Shown one piece after another: positions 5,874-26,876 of a stretch of 32,000 nt of DNA. The notes beneath the pieces were generated by a model. That model worked only from the letters and a program-made list of their open reading frames with translations, did not search any database and had not been told where the DNA came from. This DNA is from an uncultured Erysipelotrichaceae bacterium (GTDB lineage Bacteria > Bacillota_I > Bacilli_A > Erysipelotrichales > Erysipelotrichaceae), in assembly GCA_942493105.1 (NCBI GenBank), contig OW818668.1, forward strand, positions 1,980,001 through 2,012,000. The letters run 5' to 3'. The position numbers and the translations under genes were made by a program. Each line of letters begins with the position of its first letter. Position 1 is the first letter of the stretch.

Positions 5874-8077
5874 TCCGTTTGAAAAAGTATTTAAAACCTT
5901 TTATCGCTGCCATTGTATTGGCTATTGCTTTATTGTTTGTTCAAGCCTCTGCTGACTTAAATTTACCCAACTATATGTCGGATATCGTATCCATCGGGAT
6001 CCAACAAAAAGGTGTTGCTAATGCATCACCTGAGGCGCTAAGCATAAGCGGTTATGATCTTATTTCTACTTTAGCGACTCTTGATCAAAAAGAATCATTA
6101 AGTTCATCTTATAGCTTGATTACGGAACCTAACCAAGACCAACTCAAGAAATATCCAAACATGTCAGGCAAATCATTTTATGTGCTCAATAGTGACCTGA
6201 CAAAACTTCAGCGTGAAGCATTGGATGTGACTTTTGGTCAAGCTGTTTGGACTTTGATCTCACTAAACTCAGGTCAAGGTAGTTCAGGAGGACCGATGTC
6301 GATGGGCAGTTTGGATATCACCAAACTCTACCAAGCCATTCCAGGTTTAAAAATGTTACCAGCTCCTGTTTTAGAAGCTGCTCAAAACACATCATCAGAT
6401 ATCAGTGATACCTTAAAGAAACAAACCGGCGTCGTGATTGCCCAAGCTTTTTATACAGAATTAGGTGTCGATCTTGAATCCATGCAGATGAAGTATATCT
6501 TCAATACTGGACTATTAATGCTCTTGATTACTTTGATCGGTGCTGTCGCTACCATCTTGGTGGTCTTCTTGTCTTCACGTATTGGTGCTGCTTTATCTCG
6601 CAACTTAAGAAAAGACATCTTCAAAAAGGTAGAGTCTTTCTCTAACGAAGAGTTCGATACTTTTGCCTCATCATCACTAATTACCCGAACAACCAACGAT
6701 GTGACCCAAGTTCAGATGTTGATCACCATGGGTATACGGATCTTGTTTTATGCCCCGATCTTAGCCATTGGGGGGATTTATATGATTCTACAGACCAATG
6801 TCTCCATGGTTTGGATCATTGCCTTGGCTGTCAGCTTATTGATCATGATGATCGCAGGGATCTTTACAGTAGCCGTTCCAAAATTTAAGTTGACTCAGAA
6901 ACTGATCGATCGCTTAAACTTGGTGGCCCGCGAAGGCTTAAGCGGACTTATGGTCGTACGTGCTTTTGGAAATCAAGAATTCGAAGCGAAACGATTCGAT
7001 AAAGCCAATCGTAATTTGGCAGATACTTTACTCTTTGTCAATCGGGTCATGAATCTCTTGATGCCTTTCATGATGTTGATCATGAATCTTACAGTCGTCT
7101 TAATTGTTTGGGTCGGTGCTCATCAGATCGCTGAATCTAATTTACAAATCGGAGATATGCTGGCCTTCATGCAATATGCAATGCAAGTCATCATGGGCTT
7201 CCTTATGATCTCTATGGTCTTTATCATCTTCCCGCGTGCTCAAGTTTCTGCAGTACGTATCGCAGATGTCTTGGCTGTTGAAAACAAAATCGTAGATCCA
7301 AAAGATCCAAAAACTTTCAATCCTCTTCAAACAGGGGTCGTTGAATTTAAAAATGTTTCATTCAGATATGCCAACGCTGTAGAAGATGTCCTTCATGATG
7401 TCAGTTTTAAAGCTCTGCCAGGTCAAACAACCGCATTTATTGGTTCTACAGGTTCTGGTAAGAGTACACTGATCAACTTGATCCCACGCTTCTATGATGT
7501 CACTGAAGGTGCTATTTTAGTCAATGGCGTCGATGTTCGTGATGTAACTCAACATGACCTACATGAAACCATCAGTTATATCCCTCAAAAAGGCATGCTG
7601 CTTTCAGGTTCAGTCAATTTTAACTTAAAGTATGGTAAACGTGAAGCCACCCAAGAAGAAGTCCTCAAAGCCGCTTCAATCGCTCAAGCTGTTGATTTTA
7701 TCTCTCAAAAAGAAGAAGGCTTTGAATCCAATATCGCTCAAGCTGGAGCCAATGTATCTGGGGGTCAGAAACAACGTCTCTCGATTGCCAGAGCTTTGGT
7801 CAAAAATGCACCCATCATTATCTTTGATGACAGTTTCTCAGCCCTAGATTTTAAAACCGATCAGCGTTTACGAGAAGCCCTTCATAAAGAACTGCGTCAG
7901 TCGACCTTATTGATCGTCGCCCAACGGGTATCCACCATCATGAATGCGGATCAAATCATTGTCTTAGAAGACGGAAAAGTTGTTGGTCAAGGAACCCATC
8001 GTGAACTCTTGATCAGTTGTCCTACCTATTATGAAATCGCATCTTCGCAGTTATCTCAGGAGGAATTGGCGTTATGA
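5870..8077 (+). CDS. ABC exporter subunit (TMD-NBD half transporter) with a degenerate NBD
   Basis: Walker A GSTGSGKS and signature VSGGQKQR are present. Walker B is IIIFDDS, with Asp in place of the catalytic Glu (codons 7826..7831). The H-loop reads AQR, with Gln at 7922..7924 instead of His. An unusually long hydrophilic segment lies between TM1 and TM2. Confidence 0.9.
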   Translation: MIRLKKYLKPFIAAIVLAIALLFVQASADLNLPNYMSDIVSIGIQQKGVANASPEALSISGYDLISTLATLDQKESLSSSYSLITEPNQDQLKKYPNMSGKSFYVLNSDLTKLQREALDVTFGQAVWTLISLNSGQGSSGGPMSMGSLDITKLYQAIPGLKMLPAPVLEAAQNTSSDISDTLKKQTGVVIAQAFYTELGVDLESMQMKYIFNTGLLMLLITLIGAVATILVVFLSSRIGAALSRNLRKDIFKKVESFSNEEFDTFASSSLITRTTNDVTQVQMLITMGIRILFYAPILAIGGIYMILQTNVSMVWIIALAVSLLIMMIAGIFTVAVPKFKLTQKLIDRLNLVAREGLSGLMVVRAFGNQEFEAKRFDKANRNLADTLLFVNRVMNLLMPFMMLIMNLTVVLIVWVGAHQIAESNLQIGDMLAFMQYAMQVIMGFLMISMVFIIFPRAQVSAVRIADVLAVENKIVDPKDPKTFNPLQTGVVEFKNVSFRYANAVEDVLHDVSFKALPGQTTAFIGSTGSGKSTLINLIPRFYDVTEGAILVNGVDVRDVTQHDLHETISYIPQKGMLLSGSVNFNLKYGKREATQEEVLKAASIAQAVDFISQKEEGFESNIAQAGANVSGGQKQRLSIARALVKNAPIIIFDDSFSALDFKTDQRLREALHKELRQSTLLIVAQRVSTIMNADQIIVLEDGKVVGQGTHRELLISCPTYYEIASSQLSQEELAL

Positions 8078-9948
8078 GTCAAAATACACAGAATCAAGCC
8101 CCTAAGCGACAAGGCCCAATGGGAGGACCCATGGGTGGTCCTATGGGAATGCGTTCTACCGAAAAAGCCAAAGACATCAAAGGAACACTTAAAAAACTCC
8201 TTAAATTATTGAGTCCTTATTCAGTTGCGTTATTTTTCGTATTATTGTTTGCGATCGCTTCAACCGTATTTACAGTGGTTGGACCTAAGATCTTAGGTGA
8301 AGCTACAACGATTTTGGTTGAAGGCATGATGAAACAAATCACCAATACTGGATCCATTGACTTTGATGGGATTGGTAAGATTATCCTTCTATTGGTTGGC
8401 TTGTATGTGATCAGTGCCTTGTTTATGTACATCCAAGGCTTCCTTATGAGCAAAGTTGCCAATAATATCACTTACAAGTTACGTAAAGATCTTAACAGTA
8501 AGATCGAACGTTTGCCTTTAGCCTATTTTGATAAGCATAATTATGGTCAAGTTTTATCTCATATCACCAATGATGTGGATGCGGTCAACAATTCATTGTC
8601 TCAAGGCATCACGCAACTGATTACTTCTGGGACCTCCATCATCGGGATCTTATATATGATGTTTTCCATCAACTGGCAGATGTCCATCGTCGGATTATTG
8701 GTTTTACCAGTCTCTGTTTTACTGATTGGTTTGATCATGAAATCGTCACAGCGATTCTTCAAGGATCAACAAAAATATCTAGGCATGGTCAACGGCCAAG
8801 TCGAAGAAATGTATTCCAATCACGTCATCGTCAAGGCCTTTAACGGAGAAGCACAAGCCGTTGAGAATTTTACCCAATATAACGATGAGCTTTATGATTC
8901 GGCTTGGAAATCCCAATTCTTCTCAGGTATGATGCAGCCCATCATGGGTTTCATTGGTAACTTAGGTTATGTGGTCGTGGCCATATTGGGCGGCTATTTC
9001 GCTGCTCAAGGCACTTTGACCATTGGTGCCATTCAGTCTTTCATTCAGTATATGCGTTCATTTACACAGCCTATTGCACAGATCGCAGCTCAATCCAATG
9101 CGTTGCAATCTACCATCGCAGCCAGTGAAAAAATATTCTTGTTGCTTGAAGAACCTGAAGAAGCTCCAGACACAGAAAATGCTCTGCCGATCGATGATAT
9201 TCAAGGTGATGTTGGATTTGCACACGTTAAATTTGGATATAGCCCAGAAAAGATCGTCATCAATGACTTCAAGGCACATGTATCCGCTGGTCAAAAAATA
9301 GCCATCGTCGGTCCTACCGGTGCTGGTAAAACAACCATGGTCAAATTGCTGATGCGTTTCTATGATGTCACTGAAGGTGCAATCTTGGTTGATGGTTTAG
9401 ATATTCGCCAGTTTAAACGCAATGACCTCAGAACCTTATTTGGGATGGTCCTACAAGACACCTGGCTCTATAATGACACCATCCGCGAAAACATCCGCTA
9501 TGGACGTCTGGAGGCTACAGATGAAGAAGTTCATCAAGCTGCTAAAATGGCTCAGGTTGATCACTTCGTTCAAACTTTGCCTAATGGTTACGATATGATC
9601 CTTAATGAAGATTCTTCAAACATCTCAACAGGTCAAAAGCAGTTGATGACCATCGCTAGAGCCATCTTAGCCAATCCAAAAGTTTTGATCCTAGATGAAG
9701 CAACCTCTTCAGTCGATACCAGAACAGAAATCCTGATTCAAAAAGCCATGGATATCTTGATGGAAGGCAGGACCAGTTTCATCATTGCCCATCGTTTGTC
9801 CACCATCCGTAATGCAGATCTCATCTTGGTCATGAACTTAGGTGACATCGTAGAATCGGGTACCCATGACGAACTTTTGGCCAAAGGCGGTTTCTATGCC
9901 AATCTATACAACAGTCAATTCGAAGCCGGAGAAGAAGAATTCGCGTAA
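8074..9948 (+). CDS. ABC exporter subunit (TMD-NBD half transporter) with a consensus NBD
   Basis: Walker A GPTGAGKT, Walker B LILDEATS and H-loop IAHRLS are canonical. The signature is degenerate, ISTGQ (9622..9636). The start overlaps the upstream stop (ATGA). Confidence 0.9.
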   Translation: MSQNTQNQAPKRQGPMGGPMGGPMGMRSTEKAKDIKGTLKKLLKLLSPYSVALFFVLLFAIASTVFTVVGPKILGEATTILVEGMMKQITNTGSIDFDGIGKIILLLVGLYVISALFMYIQGFLMSKVANNITYKLRKDLNSKIERLPLAYFDKHNYGQVLSHITNDVDAVNNSLSQGITQLITSGTSIIGILYMMFSINWQMSIVGLLVLPVSVLLIGLIMKSSQRFFKDQQKYLGMVNGQVEEMYSNHVIVKAFNGEAQAVENFTQYNDELYDSAWKSQFFSGMMQPIMGFIGNLGYVVVAILGGYFAAQGTLTIGAIQSFIQYMRSFTQPIAQIAAQSNALQSTIAASEKIFLLLEEPEEAPDTENALPIDDIQGDVGFAHVKFGYSPEKIVINDFKAHVSAGQKIAIVGPTGAGKTTMVKLLMRFYDVTEGAILVDGLDIRQFKRNDLRTLFGMVLQDTWLYNDTIRENIRYGRLEATDEEVHQAAKMAQVDHFVQTLPNGYDMILNEDSSNISTGQKQLMTIARAILANPKVLILDEATSSVDTRTEILIQKAMDILMEGRTSFIIAHRLSTIRNADLILVMNLGDIVESGTHDELLAKGGFYANLYNSQFEAGEEEFA

Positions 9949-9952
9949 ACTC

Positions 9953-9986
9953 AAAGGATGGATTTCAAGTGAATCCATCCTTTTTT
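9953..9986 (+). terminator. Rho-independent terminator of the marR-ABC operon
   Basis: 12-bp stem AAAGGATGGATT / AATCCATCCTTT with a 7-nt loop, followed by a T-run. Confidence 0.85.
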
Positions 9987-10015
9987 ATAAGGTTGTGGTA
10001 TGATTTTAAGGAACT

Positions 10016-10726
10016 ATGGAAAGACTCAACGTCCTTATCGCTAGAACTGGTTTATGTTCTAGACGCCAAGCAGATACCTACATCATTGAAAAACGAGTGA
10101 CCGTCAACGGTCAACTCGCTGTTTTAGGTATGCAGATCTCAGAAGAAGATCTGGTTCTTCTTGATGGAGCTCCTCTTGGGAAAAAAGCCCCCCATGTACT
10201 ATTGGCCTATCATAAGCCCAAAGGCATCACTTGTACGACTGATAAAGCCATACAAGGCAATATCATCGATGCGATCAAATATCCCATCCGTATCTTTCCT
10301 ATTGGTCGATTGGATAAAGATTCTGAAGGACTGATTCTACTCACATCAGATGGAGACATCGTTAATAAGATCCTCAGAGCTGAAAATGATCATGAGAAAG
10401 AATACTACGTCAAAGTCAATGCGCCTTTGATGGGCGACTTCAAAGAAATCATGGAAGACGGGGTTGAAATCTTCAATCCTGTTAAAAATCAAAACACAGT
10501 GACTTTACCATGTAAAGTTAAAGTCATCAACGAACAATCTTTCTATATTACCCTGAGCCAAGGTCTGAATCGTCAAATCAGAAGAATGGTTGCGACTTTA
10601 GGCTATCGTGTCGTTTACCTAAAACGTGTTCGAATCATGCATATTCATCTGGATAACTTAGCTAAAGGCGAATACAGGCTTTTAAGCGATTCTGAAACAA
10701 GGATCCTATACGAATCTATATCTTAA
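10016..10726 (+). CDS. rluF: 23S rRNA pseudouridine synthase, RluF-like (RsuA family)
   Basis: N-terminal S4 domain (RLNVLIARTGLCSRRQAD), catalytic GRLDKDSEGLILLT, and NKILRAENDHEKEYYV plus QGLNRQIRRM, which closely match my recollection of E. coli RluF. Confidence 0.8.
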   Translation: MERLNVLIARTGLCSRRQADTYIIEKRVTVNGQLAVLGMQISEEDLVLLDGAPLGKKAPHVLLAYHKPKGITCTTDKAIQGNIIDAIKYPIRIFPIGRLDKDSEGLILLTSDGDIVNKILRAENDHEKEYYVKVNAPLMGDFKEIMEDGVEIFNPVKNQNTVTLPCKVKVINEQSFYITLSQGLNRQIRRMVATLGYRVVYLKRVRIMHIHLDNLAKGEYRLLSDSETRILYESIS

Positions 10727-10727
10727 A

Positions 10728-10748
10728 AAAAGGAGCTCTGCTCCTTTT
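10728..10748. terminator. Bidirectional terminator between convergent genes
   Basis: AAAAGGAGC-TCT-GCTCCTTTT. Confidence 0.7.
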
Positions 10749-11418
10749 AAAATCCCCTGTTTTGACCTCGATAAGGCGCTTCTTTATTGGCTATGTATTC
10801 ATCGATGCCAGGCCCATTAAGTGTTTTCAAGCGCCATATCCCATAGATGTAACTGAGCACTAAAATAATGATTGTAGTAGGCAGTCCCATTAATGTATTG
10901 GCCCAACCCAATTGACTGACATCATTTTGAGAATACAAAGTTAATTGGATCGTAGTTCTCATCAAGAAGAAGATGGTCCAAATCCAGGTCACTTCTCGAT
11001 AAGCAGGTTTAATCGACTTCAACCAAAACCAATCTAATTTCCAACCTCGACTGATATGACTTGCATATGCAGCCATTGGTTTATCAACAACCAATGAAAC
11101 AATCGCCAATAACAATATAAAAGCATTACTGATGATGCCTGGCAAAAAATAATTCGTCGCATTATCGGCAATCAAAGCCATACTGCCTGCTAAAATAACG
11201 CTCACTAAACCACCAAAAGCATACCCCCAACTTTGTTTGCGTGTTATGCACAAAACTCCAAAACCAAAAGCAGTTAACCCTGCCCCAAATACCGCACTCA
11301 ACAAACCAAATTGTCCATTAATGATAATAAACAACAATGGCGGTAATACCGCATCCAGTGTTTTACCTGATAAAACAGATCTTAACTCTTGAATGATCTC
11401 TAATCCCAATTTTCTCAT
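10747..11418 (-). CDS. Hypothetical integral membrane protein (about 6 TM)
   Basis: 223 aa, hydrophobic. I could not assign a confident family by eye. Confidence 0.6.
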   Translation of the reverse strand: MRKLGLEIIQELRSVLSGKTLDAVLPPLLFIIINGQFGLLSAVFGAGLTAFGFGVLCITRKQSWGYAFGGLVSVILAGSMALIADNATNYFLPGIISNAFILLLAIVSLVVDKPMAAYASHISRGWKLDWFWLKSIKPAYREVTWIWTIFFLMRTTIQLTLYSQNDVSQLGWANTLMGLPTTIIILVLSYIYGIWRLKTLNGPGIDEYIANKEAPYRGQNRGF

Positions 11419-15915: not shown

Positions 15916-16608
15916 ATGAAGAAATGGATTAAGCGTATCGGTCTTGGTTTACTAGCGATCTTAGTTATTGCTTTTGCAGGATTTTATGTATATACCTTGG
16001 ATTATTCAAAAGCAGATGTTCAGGCTGAAGAAGCCTTTACACAATCTGTTGAACAAAGCAAAACCATCCACGCCTATCTGACAGAAGATTCTGATATTGG
16101 GATCATATTTTATCCAGGTGGAAAAGTAGAATCAAAAGCTTATTCTGTATTAGGATCAGAACTAAGTGCACAAGGCTTTTCAACCTTCATCGTTGATATG
16201 CCATTTAATTTGGCAGTATTTGATATCAATGCTGCAAATCGCGTACGTAAGCTTAATCCACAAATCAAAAGCTGGTTCTTAGCTGGTCATTCATTGGGAG
16301 GAGCGATGGCTTTTTCCCATTACGATGCGAATTCAAAAGACTATGCAGGATTGATTTTATTGGCGGCATATCCTTTAAAAGATACTTCTAAACCAATTTT
16401 GATTCTTGCGGGAATAAATGATAAAGTATTAGATTTTTCAAATCTAGATGGTTTTCAGACCACTTGGATACAAGGTGGCAATCATGCTCAATTTGGTAAT
16501 TATGGACTACAAAAAGGTGATGGAACAGCAACCATCTCAGCTACTGAACAAAGATTTATCACCATTGAAGCAATTTCAAACTTTATTCAACTTAACTTAG
16601 TTCCCTAA
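15916..16608 (+). CDS. Membrane-anchored alpha/beta hydrolase
   Basis: N-terminal TM helix, nucleophile elbow GHSLGG, then GINDKV and GGNHAQF (candidate Asp and His). GAGG SD upstream. A possible extended -10 TGTTAAAAT lies at 15876..15884. Confidence 0.75.
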   Translation: MKKWIKRIGLGLLAILVIAFAGFYVYTLDYSKADVQAEEAFTQSVEQSKTIHAYLTEDSDIGIIFYPGGKVESKAYSVLGSELSAQGFSTFIVDMPFNLAVFDINAANRVRKLNPQIKSWFLAGHSLGGAMAFSHYDANSKDYAGLILLAAYPLKDTSKPILILAGINDKVLDFSNLDGFQTTWIQGGNHAQFGNYGLQKGDGTATISATEQRFITIEAISNFIQLNLVP

Positions 16609-16734: not shown

Positions 16735-17226
16735 ATGAAATCATCCATAAATCATAAAGCGGGCACAACTTTTCTTGAAGTGTTAATTGCCTTATTTATA
16801 TTTACCCTCATGGTAAGTGCAGTTTTTCCTGTGTTCATGTCCACTCGTAGAATGGACCTTTATTCCAAAGCTTTTACTGAAGCTAGACAAATGGCTCAGA
16901 CACGAATTGAATGGATTTATTCCCAATCTCAAAATTATGGATACTTGGATACTTTATATCAACTCAGTACGACAGAATCTTTTGCATGCAATGGATTCAC
17001 TTGGACTGTTGATACAACAACTTTAGAAATCTTATATAATGAACCTACATCCGTAGTTACATGTACCAAGACCAGTGCTCCTTTTGTTATAGAATTGATT
17101 TTCACCAAAGACGATGAGATCCTTACTGAAGATTTTGTCGATATTAAAGTAACTGTGAATGATGTTAGAACATCCACAACCATCAAACTCTATGAGACCC
17201 TCTATGCGACTGGCTTTATCCAATAA
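16735..17226 (+). CDS. Type IV pilin-like protein (prepilin-type N-terminus)
   Basis: Leader MKSSINHKAG followed by TTFLEVLIALFIFTLMVSAVF. Gly is at -1, Glu at +5, then a hydrophobic alpha1-N helix. Two Cys residues (C85, C110). Confidence 0.8.
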   Translation: MKSSINHKAGTTFLEVLIALFIFTLMVSAVFPVFMSTRRMDLYSKAFTEARQMAQTRIEWIYSQSQNYGYLDTLYQLSTTESFACNGFTWTVDTTTLEILYNEPTSVVTCTKTSAPFVIELIFTKDDEILTEDFVDIKVTVNDVRTSTTIKLYETLYATGFIQ

Positions 17227-17659
17227 ATCTAGAGCAGGTTTCACCCTGTTAGAGTTGATCGTCGCCATGGCTGTTTTTTCTATATTAGGATCCGTTTTGG
17301 TCAGCATCTTTGTGGCAGGCGTTCAGTATTTCTCAAACGAGAAATCACAACTTTATAATCAGTTTGGCATCACCGAACTCTCAGGTGCTCTTGAATCAGA
17401 TGCCCGTAAAGCAAGTGCTGCAAGCACAAGCTCTGGTTGTTTGGTATTTACGATCTCAAATGGAAACACTACATATTGCCTCAATACAACGACTCATGTT
17501 GTAACACGCAATTCTAATGTGGTTGCAGATCATATTTCGAGTTTTAGTTTTACCATTACATTAAATAAGTTGAACTTAGTCGTGACCAGTACCAATGATC
17601 AACGAGGCATCAACAATCAGATCAATTTGACCTATTACTTAAGGGAAGGTAATTATTGA
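17204..17659 (+). CDS. Type IV minor pilin-like protein (prepilin-type N-terminus)
   Basis: MRLALSNKSRAG|FTLLELIVAMAVFSILGSV is a canonical G|FTLxE class III signal. The start could be 17192 or 17204; the ORF-track start at 17159 would give an implausibly long leader. It overlaps the upstream gene's end. Confidence 0.8.
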   Translation: MRLALSNKSRAGFTLLELIVAMAVFSILGSVLVSIFVAGVQYFSNEKSQLYNQFGITELSGALESDARKASAASTSSGCLVFTISNGNTTYCLNTTTHVVTRNSNVVADHISSFSFTITLNKLNLVVTSTNDQRGINNQINLTYYLREGNY

Positions 17660-19149
17660 TGATAAAAGTTTTAAAAGAAAAACGAGGCATTGCCCTGTTG
17701 ACTGTCATGTTGACCTTTTTAAGTTTGTTTATTTTATTATCTGCAATAGTTTCTCTGTCGATAAACAATGCTGACAATACCATTACGACCAATAACTATT
17801 CAAAAGCATATTATGTTGCTGAATCTACACTCAATAAACGACTGGCTGAAATCGATACGATTTTCACCACTTTGGCAGACACAAATCCAAATCCCAATGA
17901 TTTATTCACATTACTTGAAAATCGGTTTAGTACTTTGCCTTCACAATTAACATTCGAACAGACTTCAGACAATGATTCAGCAACCCTATCTTTCATTGCC
18001 TCTGAAGGAACCTATGAATATCCAAATTACGTATTTTATAAATTGGTGGTGACCGGAACCGTAAATAATGTCAGCAGAACCTTATCCAAAGAAATTGGTT
18101 TCTCATATACACAAGGCGGACCTGGATTGATCATCGGTAAAGCGGTTTTGACCCAACGCGGGATGATCATAGGAGATCAGAAATCAACGATCATTGGACC
18201 AATTGCCAGTAACTTACTTGATAATACCACCATCGATATTAAGTCGACTCAAGATCAAATCCCAATGGTGTTTGTCCCGACCTCAAAGTCTTCCTATGTA
18301 CTAAATCAAACAAGGATTGGAAAGCGAATCACCGAAGTGGCAAGTCCTTTCATCTTTCCAGTTATAAATTATCCAGTTATTCCAACTTCATCTCCGACTT
18401 TGATTGCTCCTTATACTTTCGTAAACAATAAGGCAACCATCAATGTCTTTGGTTATTCATATCTTGATTCAATGACCGTTGCTCAAGGACAAACCTTAGT
18501 AATAAATTTAGGTACAAAAGGAACGTCAGGAACTCGGAAAATGTTGCGTGTCAAAGACATCAATGTTTCCGGAAATATTCGTGTCATCGGTACAGGAAGG
18601 CTCTTGTTGGTCTTTGAATATGGAAAAGGGACCCTAAACATGGGCTCAAAATTCAATGTTTGTGGTGATACCATTGGTAGTTGTGTCACCGCAGATCCAG
18701 ATTATACGAAATTCTTGTTTTATCTAAAAACTCCTTATGTAACCAAAGGTGATTTAGCGAATTATCCAAAACTTGTTTTCTCAAACCTACATTTATTCTA
18801 TGGCTCACTCTTAGCAGAATACGTAGATGTTGAAGTCAAAAGCGATAACTTCAAAGGACATATTGTCACTTCAGGAAATACGGTTAATTTTTCAGCCAAC
18901 TCTGTCATTAAAAAAGCACTGTTCTATGCTCCTTTTGCAACCATGACGATAGATTCTAATGCGGTACTTACAGGTTCACTTGTTGCCAATTACTTTACGA
19001 TTTCTAATCCGCAAACCATGGTTACTTATGTTGAAGTAGATAAAGAAACTTTCCCTTTCAGTATCGACTTCCCTACTACCTCAACCAGCGACTATGTGCC
19101 AGGCAGTATTGATATCATTGAAGGACCCGTTCAGGAGAACAACCCATGA
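17659..19149 (+). CDS. Large PilX/GspK-like minor pilin lacking Glu5; candidate tip or adhesin subunit
   Basis: The N-terminus MIKVLKEKRG|IALLTVMLTFLSLFILLSAIV is PilX_N-like, with Thr rather than Glu at +5. It is about 496 aa. The C-terminal half has recurring G(S/H)hh(A/T) turns (YGSLLAEYVDV, GHIVTSGNTVNF, TGSLVANYFTI) that suggest a beta-helix. The ATG overlaps the upstream TGA (TGATG). Confidence 0.65.
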   Translation: MIKVLKEKRGIALLTVMLTFLSLFILLSAIVSLSINNADNTITTNNYSKAYYVAESTLNKRLAEIDTIFTTLADTNPNPNDLFTLLENRFSTLPSQLTFEQTSDNDSATLSFIASEGTYEYPNYVFYKLVVTGTVNNVSRTLSKEIGFSYTQGGPGLIIGKAVLTQRGMIIGDQKSTIIGPIASNLLDNTTIDIKSTQDQIPMVFVPTSKSSYVLNQTRIGKRITEVASPFIFPVINYPVIPTSSPTLIAPYTFVNNKATINVFGYSYLDSMTVAQGQTLVINLGTKGTSGTRKMLRVKDINVSGNIRVIGTGRLLLVFEYGKGTLNMGSKFNVCGDTIGSCVTADPDYTKFLFYLKTPYVTKGDLANYPKLVFSNLHLFYGSLLAEYVDVEVKSDNFKGHIVTSGNTVNFSANSVIKKALFYAPFATMTIDSNAVLTGSLVANYFTISNPQTMVTYVEVDKETFPFSIDFPTTSTSDYVPGSIDIIEGPVQENNP

Positions 19150-20330
19150 AATTCTATAAAGTGACGGCCGTAACCGAAACAGGAGCACGTAAGACAGAAG
19201 TCATTGCTTCTGAAAATGTCGAAGAGATCTATGAAAGTCTAAAAGAGCGTTCTTTGTTTTTAGTCGATTATAAACAAGTTGCTAAATCAGGCAAGAATAA
19301 AATGAAGACTCGAGAATTAATCATATTTACGCGTCAATTAAGTGCGATGATCGATGCTGGGGTTGCCATTTTAAAAGGCATCACGATCATTCAAAACAGC
19401 ACAAAAGATCCTAAAGTCAAAAAACTCTATCAAAATTTGACTCAAGAAATCCAAAAAGGCAATTCTTTATCTGTCGCAATGCGTAAACAAAGCGGAGCAT
19501 TTCCTGATATCTTGATTAATATGGTTGTTGCAGGTGAAATGGGTGGTACGCTTGAGAAATCTTTATTGTTGATGTCCATGCATTTTGAGAAGGAACAAAA
19601 ACTAAAGAATAAAATCAAAGGGGCTTCCACATATCCAATCATATTGGGGGTCATCGCTGTTTCTGTCGTTATTTTGTTGATGACCTTTGTCTTGCCTACC
19701 TTGACCCAAATGTTTGATCCTGGAACCTTGCCCCCTCTGACTGCCTTTGTGATGGGAATCAGCCACTTTCTTACGACGTATTGGTTTATCTATATTCCTG
19801 CAGTATTCATTCTAATCACGGGCTTTATTGCTTTATTACGGGTTCCTTCATTTAGATTGAAGTTTGATTACTTTATCTTAAAGATGCCCGTTATTGGACC
19901 ATTAAATCAAACCATCTATTCAGCCAGATGTGCACGTTCTTTCGCATCCCTATATTTAAGTGGAATACAAACCATCCCAATGATTCAATCCACTGCTCAA
20001 ATTCTAGGTAATTCCTACATCGAAAGTCTATTTGATGAAGTGGTCATGCGGGTATCCCATGGTGAAATCATCTCCAAGGCTTTAGAAGACATGGGAGTCT
20101 TTGATCCTATGCTCAGTTCAATGGTCAATGTGGGTGAAGAAACTGGTGCTCTTGGTGATATCTTGGTTCGTACAGCCGATTACTTTGATGAGGAAGCAGA
20201 TACAGCCTTGTCTAAAATGGTCGCTTTGGTTGAACCGATCATGCTGGTACTTATGGGGATCATCATTGGGGTTATCGTTGTATCTGTAATTCAGCCTATG
20301 TTTGCTATGTATGATCAGATCGGAAACTAA
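19146..20330 (+). CDS. pilC: Type IV pilus platform protein PilC (GspF family)
   Basis: 394 aa with two T2SSF-type repeats (FTRQLSAMIDAGVAILKGI...; FASLYLSGIQTIPMIQ...) and 3 TM segments. The ATGA overlaps the upstream gene. Confidence 0.9.
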   Translation: MKFYKVTAVTETGARKTEVIASENVEEIYESLKERSLFLVDYKQVAKSGKNKMKTRELIIFTRQLSAMIDAGVAILKGITIIQNSTKDPKVKKLYQNLTQEIQKGNSLSVAMRKQSGAFPDILINMVVAGEMGGTLEKSLLLMSMHFEKEQKLKNKIKGASTYPIILGVIAVSVVILLMTFVLPTLTQMFDPGTLPPLTAFVMGISHFLTTYWFIYIPAVFILITGFIALLRVPSFRLKFDYFILKMPVIGPLNQTIYSARCARSFASLYLSGIQTIPMIQSTAQILGNSYIESLFDEVVMRVSHGEIISKALEDMGVFDPMLSSMVNVGEETGALGDILVRTADYFDEEADTALSKMVALVEPIMLVLMGIIIGVIVVSVIQPMFAMYDQIGN

Positions 20331-20342
20331 GAGGTAAAAATC

Positions 20343-21818
20343 ATGCTCATTATCGAAATTAGAGACAATTCCCTAATCATCATTCAGTCCTCTTCAAAGC
20401 TGAATACATTTAGAATCACAGATTCTAAAACCATAGAATTTGAAGACAGTTGGAAAGCCTATATCTCCAATCCTGAAAATTCAGCCAACTTAACCCAAAC
20501 TTTAAAATCTTATAAGGAAAGTAAATTCTTTCTATGCTTAAACAACAGCAGTGTGATCTATCGCGATATGGTTGTTCCAAAAGCCAGTCCTCGCTATCTT
20601 ACTGCCTTGATTCGTCATGAACTAACGCATACTTTAAATCTTAGCAATGATTTTCTAATGGATTATACAATTTTAGGAGATACTTTAAGTAATGGCAAAA
20701 AAATGCAGAAGATCCTTGTCGCAACCATACTGGCCTCAAATCTAAACGAGATCCTAGAATACTTTGAAAAGATCGGTCTACAGATTTCTAAAGTCGATGT
20801 TTCACTAAACAGTCTTATGAAATATGTCGACATCACAAAAATTGCCAGTAAAGAAAAAAACACTTTGATAACAGACATCAGTTCAAATTCGATTCGTCAG
20901 TATTTATTTGAAAAAGGTAAATACAGCTATTACAGAACAACCAAAATCACAGCTTATCAAGAATCAGAGGAACAACTTAGTTTAGAAAGTACAACCGAAA
21001 TCATAGAAAAAATGCTTCAATTTTCTTTATCTCTGGGTCAAAATTCTGGTATTGATCAAATCTACCTGTTTGGATCTTATCCTAAAATCGAACATCTTAA
21101 AATTTATATGAATGAAACCCTTAATGTTGATACACAGGTCATTTCTAGACCCAAAATCCTACATGAGACCAAACGCAAACCATTCAATCATGTTTTTATC
21201 TATGCTTTAGGATTACTCTTTTCACAACGCTTCAAACGTAAAAAAGACATCAATTTGATATCACCGTATAATGTCTTTTACTCTAAAAGCGCAAATGCCA
21301 TCAACTTTGATGCGATCTATAATTCTTTAGCCTTTGGATTAGGTTATCTTGCTTTATTTGGAATCGTCATCACGACTCTTCAAACCAATGCCGTCAATGC
21401 CAACATTAAAAAAATCAATGATTATTTTAATCGTCCTGACATCATACAAGCTTTAAGCGAAATCTCTGAAATGAAGGCCACGATTGCTTCACTTAATGAG
21501 ATCACAAAGGAGCTCGATAGTATTCAACTTGTCCTTGACAGTATCCCCCGCTATACCGATCTTAAAATTCAAGATCTGATCTTGATCAAACCTACAGGTG
21601 TTGATTTTAGTAAAATTGCCTTTATTGATAATGTCATTACGATTTCAATCATAGCAGAAGACCCAAGTATGATTTATGAATATGTACTAGAACTTAGTGA
21701 AGTAGAAACCTTTAGTAAGGTAACCTATACCAGTTATCAAATGGAGACCAATTCCAAAAAATATACATCAGAGATTCATTTGACATTAAGCGAGGAAACT
21801 AGCCATGAAAATAACTAA
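20343..21818 (+). CDS. PilM-PilN fusion protein (GspL-like architecture)
   Basis: Residues 1 to about 300 follow the actin-like PilM pattern (IIEIRDNSLIII; ITDISSNSIRQY; IYLFGSYPKIEHLKIYMNETLN). This is followed by KKDINLISPY (compare the PilN INLLP motif), one TM segment (LAFGLGYLALFGIVITTL), a coiled coil, and a PilN-like C-terminal domain. Confidence 0.7.
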   Translation: MLIIEIRDNSLIIIQSSSKLNTFRITDSKTIEFEDSWKAYISNPENSANLTQTLKSYKESKFFLCLNNSSVIYRDMVVPKASPRYLTALIRHELTHTLNLSNDFLMDYTILGDTLSNGKKMQKILVATILASNLNEILEYFEKIGLQISKVDVSLNSLMKYVDITKIASKEKNTLITDISSNSIRQYLFEKGKYSYYRTTKITAYQESEEQLSLESTTEIIEKMLQFSLSLGQNSGIDQIYLFGSYPKIEHLKIYMNETLNVDTQVISRPKILHETKRKPFNHVFIYALGLLFSQRFKRKKDINLISPYNVFYSKSANAINFDAIYNSLAFGLGYLALFGIVITTLQTNAVNANIKKINDYFNRPDIIQALSEISEMKATIASLNEITKELDSIQLVLDSIPRYTDLKIQDLILIKPTGVDFSKIAFIDNVITISIIAEDPSMIYEYVLELSEVETFSKVTYTSYQMETNSKKYTSEIHLTLSEETSHENN

Positions 21819-22452
21819 AAAAGACATCATGTATCTGAAGTGGCTTGGTCTATTTTTGGGCATCTATGTCTTTTGGACTTACTTATGGTTACCCATGAGT
21901 ACAACATTGAGTACTAAACAAGTTCAGCTTCAAGAACTTGAAACTCGATATATGGTCGCTGAACAAACGATACCGACACGAAATACGGTTAAAAATCTAG
22001 AGATGGATGCGAAAGCAAAAGCCAAACTCAAATTCGAACAATTCTTTGATGTGCTTACACCGGCTCAAACAGAAGCAATCTTAGTTCCCATCATCAAAGC
22101 ACATCGAGCTAAAATAAGTTACTTTCAAGTTTCTGATGCACAAGTCGTCGTACCTGAAACTACATTGAAACTTGAAGAACAACTTAGCTACAAAATCAAA
22201 GAATTGATTGATCTCTACAACAATATGACCACACAAGATCCTAAGCTTCCGATCACTCAGTCTCAACTGCTAAAAACACAGATCACGTATTTGGTCGATG
22301 TATCTTTTGAAGACTATAAAGCTTTATTAAAGACCATTGATGATATGGAAGTAACGATCCTGCTTTCATCTTCTGAGTATGATTTCAATGATAAGGTTGC
22401 AGAAATGGTATTTGATATTTATTCTATAGAAAAAATAGATTTCGTCCAATAA
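21805..22452 (+). CDS. PilO-like bitopic pilus alignment protein
   Basis: 215 aa with a short cytoplasmic N-terminus, one TM segment (WLGLFLGIYVFWTYLWLP), a coiled coil (QVQLQELETRY...) and a globular C-terminal domain. The call rests on position and topology only. Confidence 0.5.
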   Translation: MKITKKDIMYLKWLGLFLGIYVFWTYLWLPMSTTLSTKQVQLQELETRYMVAEQTIPTRNTVKNLEMDAKAKAKLKFEQFFDVLTPAQTEAILVPIIKAHRAKISYFQVSDAQVVVPETTLKLEEQLSYKIKELIDLYNNMTTQDPKLPITQSQLLKTQITYLVDVSFEDYKALLKTIDDMEVTILLSSSEYDFNDKVAEMVFDIYSIEKIDFVQ

Positions 22453-22544
22453 GAAAATCTTGATCATCTAAAATGTCCCATTATTTCATAAAGGCGTTTT
22501 TTGATGTAAAATGAAGCTTAGAAAACAAACACAGAGGTCCGTTT

Positions 22545-24203
22545 ATGAAGCATGCATCCCTAGAAGAAATGCTCGTCAATGAAAAGATCATTACTCAAGC
22601 TCAATTAGAAGAAGTCAATCTGATTCAGAAAGAAACAGGTCAGGCTACTTTTTATATCATCCTAGATCATCAGTTTGCCAAAGAAAAAGATGTTTTAAGA
22701 ATCCTTGCTAAAAGTCTAAAAATGGATTTTGTTGACAACCTCATCAACAACATCAACACAGATGTGATACGTTCTTTTCCACAACAATTGGCTCAAAAAT
22801 ATAAAATGTGCCCTTTAAGAGTTCATGAAGGAACCCTTACATTGGCTACCAGCAATCCATTTAACGTTACCGCAATAGAAGACATCAGTATGCTGATTGG
22901 ACTCTCTATCAACACAGTATTGTCTACCAAGACCGATATTGAAGTAGCCATCGATCGTCTTTATACAAAACGCAGTGAAAAGAATGAGCAAGGTGAAGAC
23001 ATCGCCAATGAAGGTGATGAAGCTGAAAACGAAGCAACCGTAGAAACATCATCTGTAGTTAGGATCGTAAACAATCTGATCATCGATGCGTATAAAGTCA
23101 ATGCCAGTGATATCCATATTGAACCAGAAGCCAACTTTACCAGAGTACGATTCAGAGTTGATGGTGATCTAATAAAGCATATCGATTTCGATAAAGAAAA
23201 ACACTCTTTGATTTCTACCCGCATCAAGATCTTATCTGGCCTTAACATCGCAGAAAAACGCTTGCCTCAAGATGGCAGTTTCCAATTCAACCATGACTTT
23301 AAAAAAATAGACATCCGAGTATCTACCTTACCAACCCCTTATGGCGAAAATATCGTCATGCGTCTTTTAGGGGCTGATCAAAACATCGAGTATTCATTGT
23401 CTGGTTTAGGAATTTCTCCCGCAACGATCATGACCATTGAGAAAGCCATTCGTGTTCCTCATGGGATCATTTTGGTCACAGGACCTACCGGTTCAGGTAA
23501 GACCACGACCTTATATTCGATCTTAGCGAAATTAGCAGTTCCTACCAAAGCCATAAAGACCGTTGAAGATCCCATAGAACGAAAATTTGAAGGCATCACT
23601 CAAGTTCAAGTCAACCAAAAAGCTGGTTTGACTTTTGCGGCTGGTCTACGTTCAATTTTACGTCAAGATCCTGATATCATCATGATCGGTGAGATTCGTG
23701 ATACAGAAACCGCAGAAATCGCCATCAGATCTGCCATTACCGGTCACTTGGTCTTATCGACCATCCATACCAATGATGCTTTATCTTCAGTCATACGTTT
23801 GGTCGATATGGGCATTGAGCCTTTTAAAGTAGGATCCTCATTGGTCTGTATTATTTCACAACGTTTGGTTAAAAAGATCTGTGTCCACTGTAAGAAAAAA
23901 GTTGACATAAGCACAACTGAAGCTCGTTTACTCGCGACTGATTTAACCTATGTGTATGAAGGTGCAGGTTGTCCAAAATGCAACAATACCGGATATAGCG
24001 GCCGCTTAGCTGTCTTTGAGATCGTCTTGATTGATGGACACCTAGAAGATTTGATTTCTCGTGGTGCTTCATTAGAAGACCTTAGAAACTATGCTAAAGA
24101 GAAGAAGATCCCAATGTTGAGAGATGAAGTTATGAACTATGTTCAAATTGGAACAACTACTGTAGAAGAAGCCTTACGTATCTTATATAATGTTGAAAAC
24201 TAA
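22545..24203 (+). CDS. pilB: Type IV pilus extension ATPase PilB (GspE family)
   Basis: GspE_N-like N-terminus, Walker A GPTGSGKTTT, Walker B/Asp box DPDIIMIGEIRD, His box GHLVLSTIHTN, and a tetracysteine motif CVHC...CPKC. Confidence 0.92.
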   Translation: MKHASLEEMLVNEKIITQAQLEEVNLIQKETGQATFYIILDHQFAKEKDVLRILAKSLKMDFVDNLINNINTDVIRSFPQQLAQKYKMCPLRVHEGTLTLATSNPFNVTAIEDISMLIGLSINTVLSTKTDIEVAIDRLYTKRSEKNEQGEDIANEGDEAENEATVETSSVVRIVNNLIIDAYKVNASDIHIEPEANFTRVRFRVDGDLIKHIDFDKEKHSLISTRIKILSGLNIAEKRLPQDGSFQFNHDFKKIDIRVSTLPTPYGENIVMRLLGADQNIEYSLSGLGISPATIMTIEKAIRVPHGIILVTGPTGSGKTTTLYSILAKLAVPTKAIKTVEDPIERKFEGITQVQVNQKAGLTFAAGLRSILRQDPDIIMIGEIRDTETAEIAIRSAITGHLVLSTIHTNDALSSVIRLVDMGIEPFKVGSSLVCIISQRLVKKICVHCKKKVDISTTEARLLATDLTYVYEGAGCPKCNNTGYSGRLAVFEIVLIDGHLEDLISRGASLEDLRNYAKEKKIPMLRDEVMNYVQIGTTTVEEALRILYNVEN

Positions 24204-24206
24204 ACT

Positions 24207-24235
24207 AAAAGTGCCAAAAATGGCACTTTTATTCT
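24207..24235 (+). terminator. Rho-independent terminator of the pilus operon
   Basis: AAAAGTGCCA-AAAA-TGGCACTTTT followed by a T-rich tail. Confidence 0.85.
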
Positions 24236-24327
24236 TATTATCAGAATTTGCTTTTAATTTGAGCATAATGGTGGTAAGTTAAAATCGAGAATGGTAAAGT
24301 AACTTTACTAAAAAGGAGAATATTCAT

Positions 24328-25107
24328 ATGGACATTAAATTTCAAAAGCTTAGACGTTTTAACTTAATCATGGGTCTATTTCATTTAGTTCAAGGGGTAG
24401 CCATGTTGTTTCTGGCAACCAGTGTGATTCAAAAAATCGCAGCATTTCAACCTACAGTCGTTCAGTATTTCTTACAATTCAATTTAGCAACACAATCTTT
24501 GGAACCAGCCGTTAAAGATTTGTTCCAGTTGCCCTTTGGCATCTTGGTTGCCAGTTTCTTATTGATTTCAGCGCTTGCACATGGTTTGATCTATCTCAGC
24601 GGTGATAAATACATCAATGATCTAAAGAAAGGCATCAATCAATTCCGTTGGTTTGAATATGCTTTCAGTTCTTCCATCATGATCGTCTTGATTGCTACCC
24701 TATTTGGCGTTTACGATATTGGCTCACTTGTTTTAATTTTCTTGGTCAATGCAGCCATGAATCTGTTTGGTTTAGATATGGAACTCATCAATGCCGGAAC
24801 TAAAAAAGAAAAAGTAAACTGGGGTCCATTTATTTGGGGTTCAGTCGCAGGCTTAGCACCTTGGATCGTCATCTTATTGTATATGTTTGGCTCTGGTAAT
24901 TTCGATATGACCCCATGGTTTGTATGGGCCATCGTCGGGACCTACTTCGTTGCCTTCAATACCTTCCCCATCAACATGATCCTGCAATACAAACGTGTTG
25001 GAAAGTGGAAAGATTACCTCTACGGAGAACGTGTCTATATCATCTTAAGTTTAGCTGCTAAATCGATCTTGGCTTGGTTGGTTCTGTTTGGAGCCATGCA
25101 GCCTTAA
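24328..25107 (+). CDS. Heliorhodopsin
   Basis: 259 aa with 7 hydrophobic helices. Motifs FNLIMGLFHLVQ (His19), SALAHG (His85), FRWFEYAFSSSIMIVLIA (Glu110), LVNAAMNLFG, LAPWIVILLY and GERVYIILSLAAKSILAW (Lys245, codon 25060..25062) line up with my recollection of heliorhodopsin 48C12 (FRWVEYSLSSSVMIVLIA; GERAYIVLSLVAKSALAW, where the Lys forms the Schiff base). AAAGGAG SD upstream. Confidence 0.88.
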   Translation: MDIKFQKLRRFNLIMGLFHLVQGVAMLFLATSVIQKIAAFQPTVVQYFLQFNLATQSLEPAVKDLFQLPFGILVASFLLISALAHGLIYLSGDKYINDLKKGINQFRWFEYAFSSSIMIVLIATLFGVYDIGSLVLIFLVNAAMNLFGLDMELINAGTKKEKVNWGPFIWGSVAGLAPWIVILLYMFGSGNFDMTPWFVWAIVGTYFVAFNTFPINMILQYKRVGKWKDYLYGERVYIILSLAAKSILAWLVLFGAMQP

Positions 25108-25121
25108 TCTTATGTTTATAC

Positions 25122-25148
25122 AAAGGATGTCTTAGGCATCCTTTTTTT
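25122..25148 (+). terminator. Rho-independent terminator after the heliorhodopsin gene
   Basis: AAAGGATG-TCTTAGG-CATCCTTT followed by a T-run. Confidence 0.75.
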
Positions 25149-25248
25149 CATAATAAATAACGTTATGAATTTGTTGTCTGAAATTATTTATGATTCAGTT
25201 GAAATAAGAATAAGCGCTTTGAAGTATAATGAAGTCGAGGTATTTCTC

Positions 25249-25554
25249 ATGGAAAACATGGAACTGATTTGTTTCAACATCATATCAAATGCTGGTTCAG
25301 CTAAATCTTCTTTCTTAGATGCTTTAAGTGCCATCAAAATCAAACAGTTTGATTCAGCGAAATCAAAACTAAAAGAAGGCGAACATTATCTTAGAGAAGC
25401 CCACAAGACTCATATGGGCATCATCTCGCAAGAAGCCAGTGGTATCAAAACCGAATTCTCACTCTTACTGATGCATGCGGAGGATCAAATCAATACCGCT
25501 GAGATCATTAAGATCCTAGTCGATGAATTGATTCAACTGTATCCAAAAACATAA
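25249..25554 (+). CDS. PTS EIIA component, lactose/cellobiose family (stand-alone)
   Basis: About 101 aa from the ATG at 25249 (GAGG SD at 25237..25240). ELICFNIISNAGSAKS and LLLMHAEDQ (phospho-His region) are typical of PTS_IIA type-3. The ORF-track start at 25165 adds 28 aa that are not like the family. Confidence 0.75.
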   Translation: MENMELICFNIISNAGSAKSSFLDALSAIKIKQFDSAKSKLKEGEHYLREAHKTHMGIISQEASGIKTEFSLLLMHAEDQINTAEIIKILVDELIQLYPKT

Positions 25555-25577
25555 AAAGCGACTCAAGTCGCTTTTTG
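25553..25577. terminator. Bidirectional terminator between convergent genes
   Basis: AAAAAGCGAC-TCAA-GTCGCTTTTT. Confidence 0.8.
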
Positions 25578-26876
25578 TTTGTTTCTATGTCCATTTTGAT
25601 AATTAGGTTTAGGACCCTCTTTTTTAAATGAAGCTGATGGATGTGGTTTTTGACGATGGAAGCGGGCTGGATCTTTATCCCCGAATTTCTTATCGACCGC
25701 TGCAGGTTTACTGGTAAAGACAGGCTCTGTCGGTCTGATACGATGACCACGCGGACTGAAAGGATGGTCATGAGTAATGGGGATCGACTTATTGATGAGC
25801 TTTTCAATGTCTCTTAATAAGCCTCTTTCTTCTTCATCACAGAAAGATATGGCTGTACCACCAAGTCCTGCACGTCCTGTTCGTCCAATACGATGAACAT
25901 AGGTTTCAGACACTTCAGGCAGATCATAAATCAACACATGGCTCAATTCATCGATATCCAATCCTCTGGCAGCGATGTCGGTTGCGACCAGAATTTTTGT
26001 TTTTCTGTCCTTAAAGGATTTCAAGGCAGCTTGTCTTGCATTTTGAGATTTGTTCCCATGAATGGCTAAAGCAGGCAAACCAGAGATCACCAGCGCTTTA
26101 ACGATTTTGTCAGCACCATGTTTGGTTCTAGAGAAGACCAATACAGATTCAATATCTAAGGTTTTAAGCAGATGGATCAATAAATGGATCTTATCAGGTT
26201 TATTGACGAAATAGAGCTGTTGATTGATCGTATCTACAGTAGAGGCAACAGGTGTTACTTCAACTTTAACTGGATTTTTTAAGATAGAATTGGATAATAT
26301 GGCGATTTCTTTAGGCATAGTAGCTGAAAAGAACATCGTTTGTCTCACATGAGGCAAATATGAAATGATCTTACGTACATCATGGATCATCCCCATATCC
26401 AACATCATATCTGCTTCATCCAAAACAAAGTATTTCACATGTTCAAGATGAATGAATTTCTGATTGATCAAATCAAGTAAACGACCTGGTGTAGCGACTA
26501 AAATATCAACGCCTCTAGCCAATTCATCGGTTTGAGGACGCTGAGAAACGCCACCATAGATCGCAATGGTCCTGGAATTTAAGTACTTCCCATAGGTCTT
26601 AAAACTGTCTTGGATTTGAATGGCCAATTCTCTGGTCGGTGCTAAAATCAAAGCTTGGATCTTTCTTGGTGTTTTGGATGCTCCGCTTAAGCCTTGAAGT
26701 ATAGGAATCGCAAATGCTGCAGTTTTTCCTGTGCCGGTTTGGGCAGTTCCTAAAAGATCTTTGCCTTCTAATAAAGGACCAATCGCTTGGGCCTGGATGG
26801 GTGTTGGGTCTTTATAACCTTCTTCTTTGAGTGCCCGTTGTATCGGGGCGATGATGTTTAAATTTTCAAATTGCAT
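25563..26876 (-). CDS. DEAD-box ATP-dependent RNA helicase
   Basis: Q-motif region FENLNI...PTPIQ, then AQTGTGKT, PTRELA, DEAD, SAT and HRIGRTGRAG motifs, with a basic C-terminal tail. I prefer the ATG at 26876 (AAGGAAAAA SD) over the GTG at 26894. Confidence 0.9.
   Translation of the reverse strand: MQFENLNIIAPIQRALKEEGYKDPTPIQAQAIGPLLEGKDLLGTAQTGTGKTAAFAIPILQGLSGASKTPRKIQALILAPTRELAIQIQDSFKTYGKYLNSRTIAIYGGVSQRPQTDELARGVDILVATPGRLLDLINQKFIHLEHVKYFVLDEADMMLDMGMIHDVRKIISYLPHVRQTMFFSATMPKEIAILSNSILKNPVKVEVTPVASTVDTINQQLYFVNKPDKIHLLIHLLKTLDIESVLVFSRTKHGADKIVKALVISGLPALAIHGNKSQNARQAALKSFKDRKTKILVATDIAARGLDIDELSHVLIYDLPEVSETYVHRIGRTGRAGLGGTAISFCDEEERGLLRDIEKLINKSIPITHDHPFSPRGHRIRPTEPVFTSKPAAVDKKFGDKDPARFHRQKPHPSASFKKEGPKPNYQNGHRNKQKAT

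Follow-up and report, generated by a model that had tools for sequence, protein, structure and literature searches.

Gene organization and transcription unit

The window analyzed here, a stretch of 32,000 nucleotides from an uncultured Erysipelotrichaceae bacterium (assembly GCA_942493105.1, contig OW818668.1), carries on its forward strand a gene whose product, as judged from sequence and modeled structure, belongs with virtual certainty to the heliorhodopsin (HeR) family. Relatives of this gene were sought in species-representative genomes, where they occurred in 534 stretches; the best 80 of these (72–96% identical) were examined, and locus comparisons were made on 79 loci together with the window, HeR lying at about 10001–10780 in most of the loci. 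Residue equivalences were taken from HMMER alignments to 48C12 (6su3), the founding member of the family, and to TaHeR (6is6), the chain numbering of 48C12 being the native one, since H23 agrees. The gene, the signals that delimit it, and three of its codons are the following:

24328..25107, + strand: HeR coding sequence, ATG start, 259 amino acids (aa) plus stop codon; assigned from PF18761, NF038020, the HeR entries of the Protein Data Bank (PDB), and a structural model with its Foldseek matches
24314..24318, + strand: Shine-Dalgarno (SD) sequence AGGAG, 9 nt 5′ of the HeR ATG, read from the sequence
24206..24231, + strand: intrinsic terminator of the upstream PilB/GspE-like ATPase gene (22545–24203), 11-bp stem with 4 GC pairs and a T-rich tail
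25122..25144, + strand: intrinsic terminator 3′ of the HeR stop codon, 10-bp stem followed by a T7 run
24655..24657, + strand: GAA codon of Glu110, the predicted sole Schiff-base counterion, equivalent to 48C12 E107; invariant in the 79 loci
24943–24945, + strand: codon of Tyr206, at the site of 48C12 L202, TaHeR I199, and E191 of the viral V2HeR3; invariant
25060..25062, + strand: AAA codon of Lys245, the predicted retinal Schiff-base lysine in transmembrane helix 7, equivalent to 48C12 K241; invariant in the 79 loci

The hairpin at 24206–24231 has a folding energy of −14.2 kcal/mol (z = −4.98) and that at 25122–25144 one of −11.5 kcal/mol (z = −3.97), none of 200 shuffled sequences being equally stable in either case. 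Terminators also flank HeR in the relative L005, and in L022 one follows the gene at the equivalent position. These signals support the transcription of the HeR gene alone, as a predicted monocistronic unit, with the terminator at 24206..24231 isolating it from the pilus operon upstream. The original prediction had described an intact reading frame with its own SD sequence and flanking terminators, and each of these elements is recovered here. A scan of the 96-nt gap 5′ of HeR for the sigma-70 consensus returned no convincing promoter.

Family assignment and predicted fold

The protein matches the Pfam family PF18761 (Heliorhodopsin) over the complete model (positions 1–242 of 242), with E = 4.2e-94 and 314.9 bits against a cut-off of 26.7, the next-best Pfam family reaching only E = 0.6, and it matches the NCBIfam equivalog NF038020, "heliorhodopsin HeR", at 290.4 bits, the cut-off being 100 (positions 1–244 of 244), so that the NCBI pipeline would assign the heliorhodopsin name automatically. 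A sequence search of the PDB gives six distinct matches, all of them HeRs, with E values from 8e-59 to 3.5e-44, among them TaHeR (6IS6; 8e-59), Cv06 (9VFC; 1e-50), and 48C12 (6SU3; 1.6e-44).

An AlphaFold2 model, built from an alignment of 41 sequences, is of moderate confidence (predicted local distance difference test, pLDDT, 73.4; predicted template modeling score, pTM, 0.69). It shows seven long helices, together with strands at 43–52 and 57–67 that form a beta-hairpin in the first extracellular (AB) loop, as in the solved HeRs. The ten best Foldseek matches of this model are all HeR entries (template modeling, TM, scores of 0.71–0.83, E ≤ 2.6e-10), with TaHeR and 48C12 at 0.75–0.83, whereas type-1 rhodopsins rank below them (TM scores of about 0.45–0.55, best E = 1.9e-3). 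The earlier claims of a seven-helix protein and of heliorhodopsin identity are borne out by these results, the profile search assigning PF18761 and no other seven-helix family.

Functional residues, topology, and subfamily

The alignments place K245, in the motif SLAAKS, opposite K241 in SLVAKS of 48C12, and E110, in RWFEY, opposite E107; likewise, H19 (FHLVQ) and H85 (SALAHG) correspond to H23 and H80, so that the lysine, the counterion, and the two histidines singled out in the original prediction do occupy homologous positions. The serines that stabilize the counterion of transmembrane helix 3 (S76, S111, and S237 in 48C12) are aligned with S81, S114, and S241, which are invariant. Seventeen polar or charged residues have been listed as conserved across HeRs (PMC7049168), and all of them are retained in the window protein (N12, H19, S81, H85, Y95, N104, R107, W108, E110, Y111, S114, E152, M217, Q220, Y230, E234, and S241), in addition to K245, and are invariant across the 79 related loci; at one of these positions, that of 48C12 Q213, the Met found here (M217) is a frequent variant according to the same study (PMC7049168). 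The predicted polar cavity would thus comprise H19, H85, N104, Y111, N12, and E234, as the equivalents of H23, H80, N101, Y108, N16, and E230 of 48C12, and R107, Y95, E152, Q220, Y230, and W108, as those of R104, Y92, E149, Q216, Y226, and W105. Of the diagnostic residues, only S172, R235, and S246 vary in the 79 loci, and the substitutions there are conservative.

When the helix limits of homologues are applied, 14 lysine and arginine residues fall in the predicted cytoplasmic segments and 2 in the extracellular ones, a distribution that fits the inverted topology, with the N-terminus inside. Regarding the subfamily, four substitutions relative to 48C12 (Q213 to M217, I142 to N145, L202 to Y206, and Q247 to L251) were recorded, and the differences match signatures not of subfamily 1 but of other bacterial subfamilies; subfamily 3 has been reported to carry Met213 together with Asn142, and subfamilies 7–9 to carry Tyr202 together with Asn142 (PMC7049168). 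On these signatures, both subfamily 3 and the bacterial subfamily 8 would fit.

Relatives, conservation, and selection

The best 80 relatives come from metagenome-assembled genomes (MAGs) of Erysipelotrichaceae (the closest, at 96%), Clostridia, Anaerolineaceae, Dehalococcoidia, and Thermotogae, and include cultured holders such as Proteiniclasticum ruminis and Fusibacter bizertensis, with Alkalibacter rhizosphaerae among the protein matches. Most are 259 aa long, and 107 of the 259 columns are invariant in the 79 loci. The ratio dN/dS of the HeR gene is 0.028 against L001, 0.033 against L003, and 0.075 against L005. With values of 0.03–0.08 and a retinal pocket whose residues are almost all invariant, the gene is judged to be functional and under strong purifying selection, which extends to the predicted retinal lysine. 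The closest loci are Erysipelotrichaceae MAGs, and with L001 the window shares 96% identity in HeR, 98% in the DEAD-box helicase, and 95% in PepF.

Within this clade, sequences 72–80% identical are distributed across Bacillota, Chloroflexota (Anaerolineae and Dehalococcoidia), and Thermotogae, on megabase contigs as well, and the identity of the window protein to Anaerolineaceae HeRs (78%) is on a par with that to some of those from Erysipelotrichaceae (78–79%); this cross-phylum similarity points to an old lateral spread combined with very strong constraint. HeR GC content follows that of the host (37–53%) in the other loci checked, and in the window the gene has 39.9% GC versus 38.1% for the whole stretch. 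A recent lateral transfer into this genome was accordingly dismissed as a candidate explanation. Judging by the names of the MAGs, many relatives derive from anaerobic reactors, groundwater, and sediments, habitats that would be odd for a light sensor.

An identical protein is already public in NCBI, on a contig of 2,032,407 bp, and a large protein collection holds 5,062 homologues at E < 1e-10, several of them labelled "heliorhodopsin HeR". Since annotation pipelines name the gene and the exact protein is public, this HeR is already known: it is an ordinary, catalogued member of the family in its commonest, stand-alone arrangement. A literature search combining heliorhodopsin with Erysipelotrichaceae found no paper. 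The Erysipelotrichaceae are monoderm Bacillota. This affiliation agrees with the rule on HeR distribution given by Flores-Uribe 2019 and Bulzu 2021, by which the hosts of HeRs are monoderm. The HeRs of Mesotoga infera and Dehalogenimonas have been expressed, with absorption at 539 nm, and a range of 530–556 nm has been reported for 13 natural HeRs (PMC7807009).

Genomic context

Further features of the window are the following:

5406–9948, + strand: MarR regulator followed by two overlapping genes for ATP-binding cassette (ABC) exporters of 735 and 624 aa, both with ABC_membrane and ABC_tran domains
16735–24203, + strand: complete operon resembling those of type IV pili or type II secretion systems (T2SS), upstream of HeR
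25165–25554, + strand: orphan enzyme IIA (EIIA) of the lactose/cellobiose type of the phosphotransferase system (PTS), directly 3′ of HeR; 83 bits, below all NCBIfam cut-offs (137)
25551–25578: bidirectional terminator hairpin common to EIIA and the DEAD-box helicase gene, which converge on it (−15 kcal/mol, z = −5.4)

The pilus operon, found complete in an apparently monoderm Erysipelotrichaceae, contains two small pilins whose N-termini bear methylation motifs, a DUF7305 protein of 497 aa, and T2SSF, PilM-like, and T2SSM-like proteins. Its last gene encodes the PilB/GspE-like ATPase, of 552 aa and with an MshEN domain, which scores below each NCBIfam equivalog cut-off (535 versus 630 for GspE and 525 versus 676 for PilB). 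The end of the operon lies 125 nt before HeR, an adjacency preserved in six close relatives. On the other side, the EIIA has no PTS IIB or IIC gene elsewhere in the 32-kb window, and from its annotated ATG it carries an N-terminal extension of about 29 aa before the Pfam domain, so that the true start may be an internal Met near 25249; the terminator hairpin at 25551–25578 overlaps the final codons of both the EIIA and the helicase reading frames as called. Beyond EIIA lie the convergent DEAD-box helicase, a phosphoribosyltransferase, a xanthine/uracil permease, PepF, and a radical-SAM/TRAM enzyme. The ABC exporter pair (5870–9948) and an alpha/beta hydrolase (15916–16608) are located 14 kb and 8 kb from HeR, respectively. 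The exporter shown to be regulated by HeR in Ornithinimicrobium (PMC11109279) is of the same heterodimeric class as this MarR-linked pair, which in the window is unlinked to HeR.

Open reading frames (ORFs) were called in the 79 loci and the window and clustered by all-versus-all BLAST, the 134 immediate neighbors of HeR were scanned against Pfam, and the tally was read for the 25 commonest families. No neighbor is conserved across the 79 loci: the 134 neighbors match 137 Pfam families, none of them, in this tally, exceeding 6 of the 134 or recurring outside a single lineage. The commonest is the methylglyoxal synthase-like (MGS-like) family, whose six members all belong to one sub-lineage, followed by T2SSE, SelO, and DUF429 with five each. 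The order PilB, HeR, (EIIA), DEAD helicase, and phosphoribosyltransferase, with PepF farther on, is common to L001, L002, L004, L005, and L022 and in part to L003 and L025, with PilB adjoining HeR in L002, L003, L004, L005, L022, and L025, and EIIA following it in L001 (EIIA 92% identical) and L022 (56%) or standing about 1.3 kb downstream in L004 and L005. In this orthologous block the neighbors diverge in step with HeR (HeR 78–96%, PilB 76–88%, and PepF 76–95%; in L022, HeR 78%, PilB 76%, PepF 76%, and DEAD helicase 67%), which points to vertical inheritance of a chromosomal segment and not to functional coupling. The helicase had appeared as a neighbor conserved in nine loci; this was dropped because the copies in L010, L016, L018, and L020 are about 38% identical and hence are different helicases, not the same synteny. 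The pilus operon and the PTS EIIA are likewise unsupported as functional partners, their adjacency being confined to one co-diverging block, with terminators intervening.

A second sub-lineage of Erysipelotrichaceae and other Firmicutes has another fixed context (L010, L012, L016, L017, L018, and L020, around 8300–11300): SelO, a protein adenylyltransferase, is divergent upstream in five of the six (not in L020), the MGS-like gene follows HeR on the same strand by 34–90 nt in all six, and a patatin-like gene comes next in five. In a few loci the methionine sulfoxide reductases PMSR and SelR, and DUF2177, stand beside HeR, an echo of the oxidative-stress idea of Bulzu 2021.

According to a published survey, 173 of 448 HeR genes have a co-operonic neighbor, in ten partner groups (glutamine synthetase, NAD+ synthetase, a photolyase, MerR, TerC, an ABC transporter, a short-chain dehydrogenase/reductase, an alpha/beta hydrolase, DUF2177, and DUF2238), and the other 275 are stand-alone (PMC11109279); none of these ten groups is adjacent to the HeR of the window, where the neighbors are the T2SSE ATPase and PTS_IIA. 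Near subfamily-1 HeRs, in turn, no conserved transducer was found by Kovalev et al. (PMC7049168).

Chromophore supply

When the window's non-nested ORFs of 90 aa or more, 38 in number with HeR included, were scanned against Pfam, no carotenoid or retinal biosynthesis family was detected, in agreement with what had been predicted. The window nevertheless represents about 1.6% of a genome of about 2 Mb, and so this absence is uninformative. The accompanying question of where the chromophore comes from, which the original prediction had raised, is real; it is also long known (PMC7734400) and not specific to this locus, about which 32 kb say little. Many cases of prokaryotes that have a rhodopsin and no blh or diox1 are on record, and some of these organisms import exogenous retinal (PMC7734400). 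Scavenging of retinal from the environment has, in our estimation, an even chance of being the source here.

A carotenoid-binding site has been proposed for about 91% of HeRs in a preprint (10.1101/2025.11.27.691015), which gives as sequence criteria an aromatic residue at positions 162 and 206 of 48C12, a non-bulky residue at each of 166 and 210, and Gly and Asn at 169 and 207, respectively. The window protein has F168 and F210, S172 and P214 (Pro as in Cv06), G175, and N211 at these positions. Such a fenestration motif is compatible with the uptake of exogenous retinal and possibly with a xanthophyll antenna.

Proposed function and alternative explanations

Taken together, the data are very probably best explained by a functional, stand-alone HeR that acts as a photosensor; by analogy with characterized members, it is likely to be a non-transporting sensor or regulator. 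As known HeR biochemistry suggests, the protein would be inserted with its N-terminus in the cytoplasm and would carry all-trans retinal covalently attached to Lys245, Glu110 being the only counterion. Light would isomerize the retinal, and the proton of the Schiff base, instead of crossing the membrane, would enter a polar cavity on the cytoplasmic side, formed by H19, H85, N104, Y111, E234, Q220, and waters. A long-lived intermediate would then reshape the positively charged cytoplasmic loops and thereby modulate a partner protein, encoded away from HeR and not in an operon with it. In the least certain step of this scheme, the chromophore would be scavenged, probably through the lateral fenestration (F168, S172, G175, F210, N211, and P214).

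Several points weigh against this photosensor reading. Retinal binding, photocycle, topology, and lack of transport are all predicted from homology, and the AlphaFold2 model is of moderate confidence only. Tyr206 is invariant, polar, and predicted to lie in the extracellular half, a region that is entirely hydrophobic in both TaHeR (Ile at this site) and 48C12 (Leu), so that the interior would not be identical to that of the two non-transporting reference structures; Tyr at this position (202 in 48C12) has been flagged for subfamilies 7–9 (PMC7049168). The genomic context nominates no partner. As for the chromophore, an endogenous retinal pathway may lie in the rest of the genome of about 2.03 Mb, and at least one bacterium without blh makes retinal by an unknown route (PMC7734400).

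A transporter of protons, light-gated or light-driven, in the manner of the giant-virus protein V2HeR3 would be argued for by membership of the same family, by the retention of Glu110 and of E234, which corresponds to E215 of V2HeR3, and by Tyr206, polar and invariant, which occupies the gate position within the extracellular half. In V2HeR3, from Emiliania huxleyi virus 202, E191 is essential, though not sufficient, for proton transport, together with W195 (PMC9448325); the alignment places Tyr206 at the first of these positions, Phe210 at the second, and Gln220 at that of E205, so that the Glu191/Trp195 hallmark of the proton-transporting V2HeR3 group is absent. The closest structural relatives, TaHeR and 48C12, are non-transporting, and the viral transporters belong to Kovalev subfamily 2, from which the Asn138 analogue and the fenestration motif are missing, features that are both present here (N141 in the first case); transport is therefore regarded as highly unlikely. 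It is just as doubtful that the light signal is relayed to a neighbor, either the PilB-like ATPase, for control of the pilus, or the EIIA, for sugar signaling. The preserved adjacency of PilB and HeR in six relatives and the proximity of EIIA in L001, L022, L004, and L005 would speak for such a relay, as would the regulation by known HeRs of proteins encoded beside them; but terminators separate HeR from both genes, in the window and in relatives, the adjacency is limited to one co-diverging orthologous block for which vertical inheritance accounts, T2SSE or EIIA stands beside HeR in none of some 70 other loci of the same HeR clade, and neither protein belongs to the ten published partner groups. 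The fuller version, in which HeR would be the photoreceptor of a circuit acting on the ATPase or the EIIA with retinal scavenged from the community, in an organism unable to make it, deserves equally little credence; if true, the PilB link would mean that a rhodopsin controls the pilus or a phototactic response of a monoderm heterotroph.

Two further alternatives concern the chromophore. HeR might be a two-chromophore light harvester, with an exogenous xanthophyll antenna at the fenestration and light capture, instead of signaling to a partner, as its main function. All of the preprint's sequence criteria are found in the protein, all but S172 of the residues concerned are invariant in the 79 loci, and the host lineage is monoderm, as the antenna hypothesis demands. 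Nevertheless, the motif is near-universal in HeRs and thus lacks discriminating power, the support offered for carotenoid binding by HeRs, in the sections of the preprint considered, consists of docking and crystal lipids and not of measured binding, and the antenna leaves the use of the captured energy unstated, with no known energy output without ion transport; this explanation is accordingly considered improbable. The opposite alternative, an opsin that is never loaded with retinal in this organism, either because it has a light-independent role or because the gene is being lost, could draw on the lack of retinal and carotenoid genes in the window and on the related MAGs, which by their names often come from anaerobic reactors, groundwater, and sediments, a habitat deduced from those names. 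It is very unlikely in view of dN/dS of 0.03–0.08, an intact reading frame with a good SD sequence, and the invariance of K245, E110, and nearly all of the retinal-pocket residues checked across the 79 loci, which span several phyla, an invariance not needed for a role independent of retinal.

Under the photosensor reading, the question raised by the gene is generic to the HeR family and not specific to this locus, and the content of the window adds no tractability to it. The general problem is real: the role of most prokaryotic HeRs and the source of the chromophore in organisms without retinal genes. Because it is extremely conserved, spans several phyla (Bacillota, Chloroflexota, and Thermotogae), and is present in cultured strains whose HeRs are 73–78% identical to that of the window, namely Proteiniclasticum ruminis DSM 24773, Fusibacter bizertensis, and Alkalibacter rhizosphaerae, the clade would be a reasonable experimental entry point.

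Comparison with characterized heliorhodopsins

From the members of its own 72–96% clade in Erysipelotrichaceae, Clostridia, Anaerolineae, Dehalococcoidia, and Thermotogae, the window protein shows no difference of substance. Its best match among solved structures is TaHeR from Thermoplasmatales archaeon SG8-52-1 (6IS6, 7U55, and 7CLJ), with which it aligns by phmmer over residues 2–259 and by Foldseek with TM scores of 0.79–0.83 at 44–45% identity. Common to both proteins are the Schiff-base Lys and its counterion Glu, the pair of His, Asn at position 142 and Met at position 213 of 48C12, and the motif NM(I/Y)LQYK. TaHeR is archaeal, however, its AB loop is 7 residues shorter, and it has Thr at the site of Asn141, so that the window protein has two Asn near the ionone ring (N141 and N145), and Ile199 at the site of Tyr206. 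The founding member 48C12, from an actinobacterial fosmid (6SU3, 6SU4, 6UH3, and 9LJJ), is about 44% identical over 247 aligned positions. V2HeR3 shares the family, the counterion Glu, and the equivalent of its E215.

Among the HeRs with a known output, regulation of a partner has been shown for glutamine synthetase, photolyase, and an ABC transporter (PMC9529153, PMC9769723, and PMC11109279). The corresponding proteins, AbHeR, TfHeR, and OcHeR (the last acting on the OmrDE ABC exporter), belong to the same family as the window HeR and presumably share with it a light-dependent protein–protein interaction; they differ in that they lie in operons with their partners, whereas the HeR of the window is predicted to be monocistronic.

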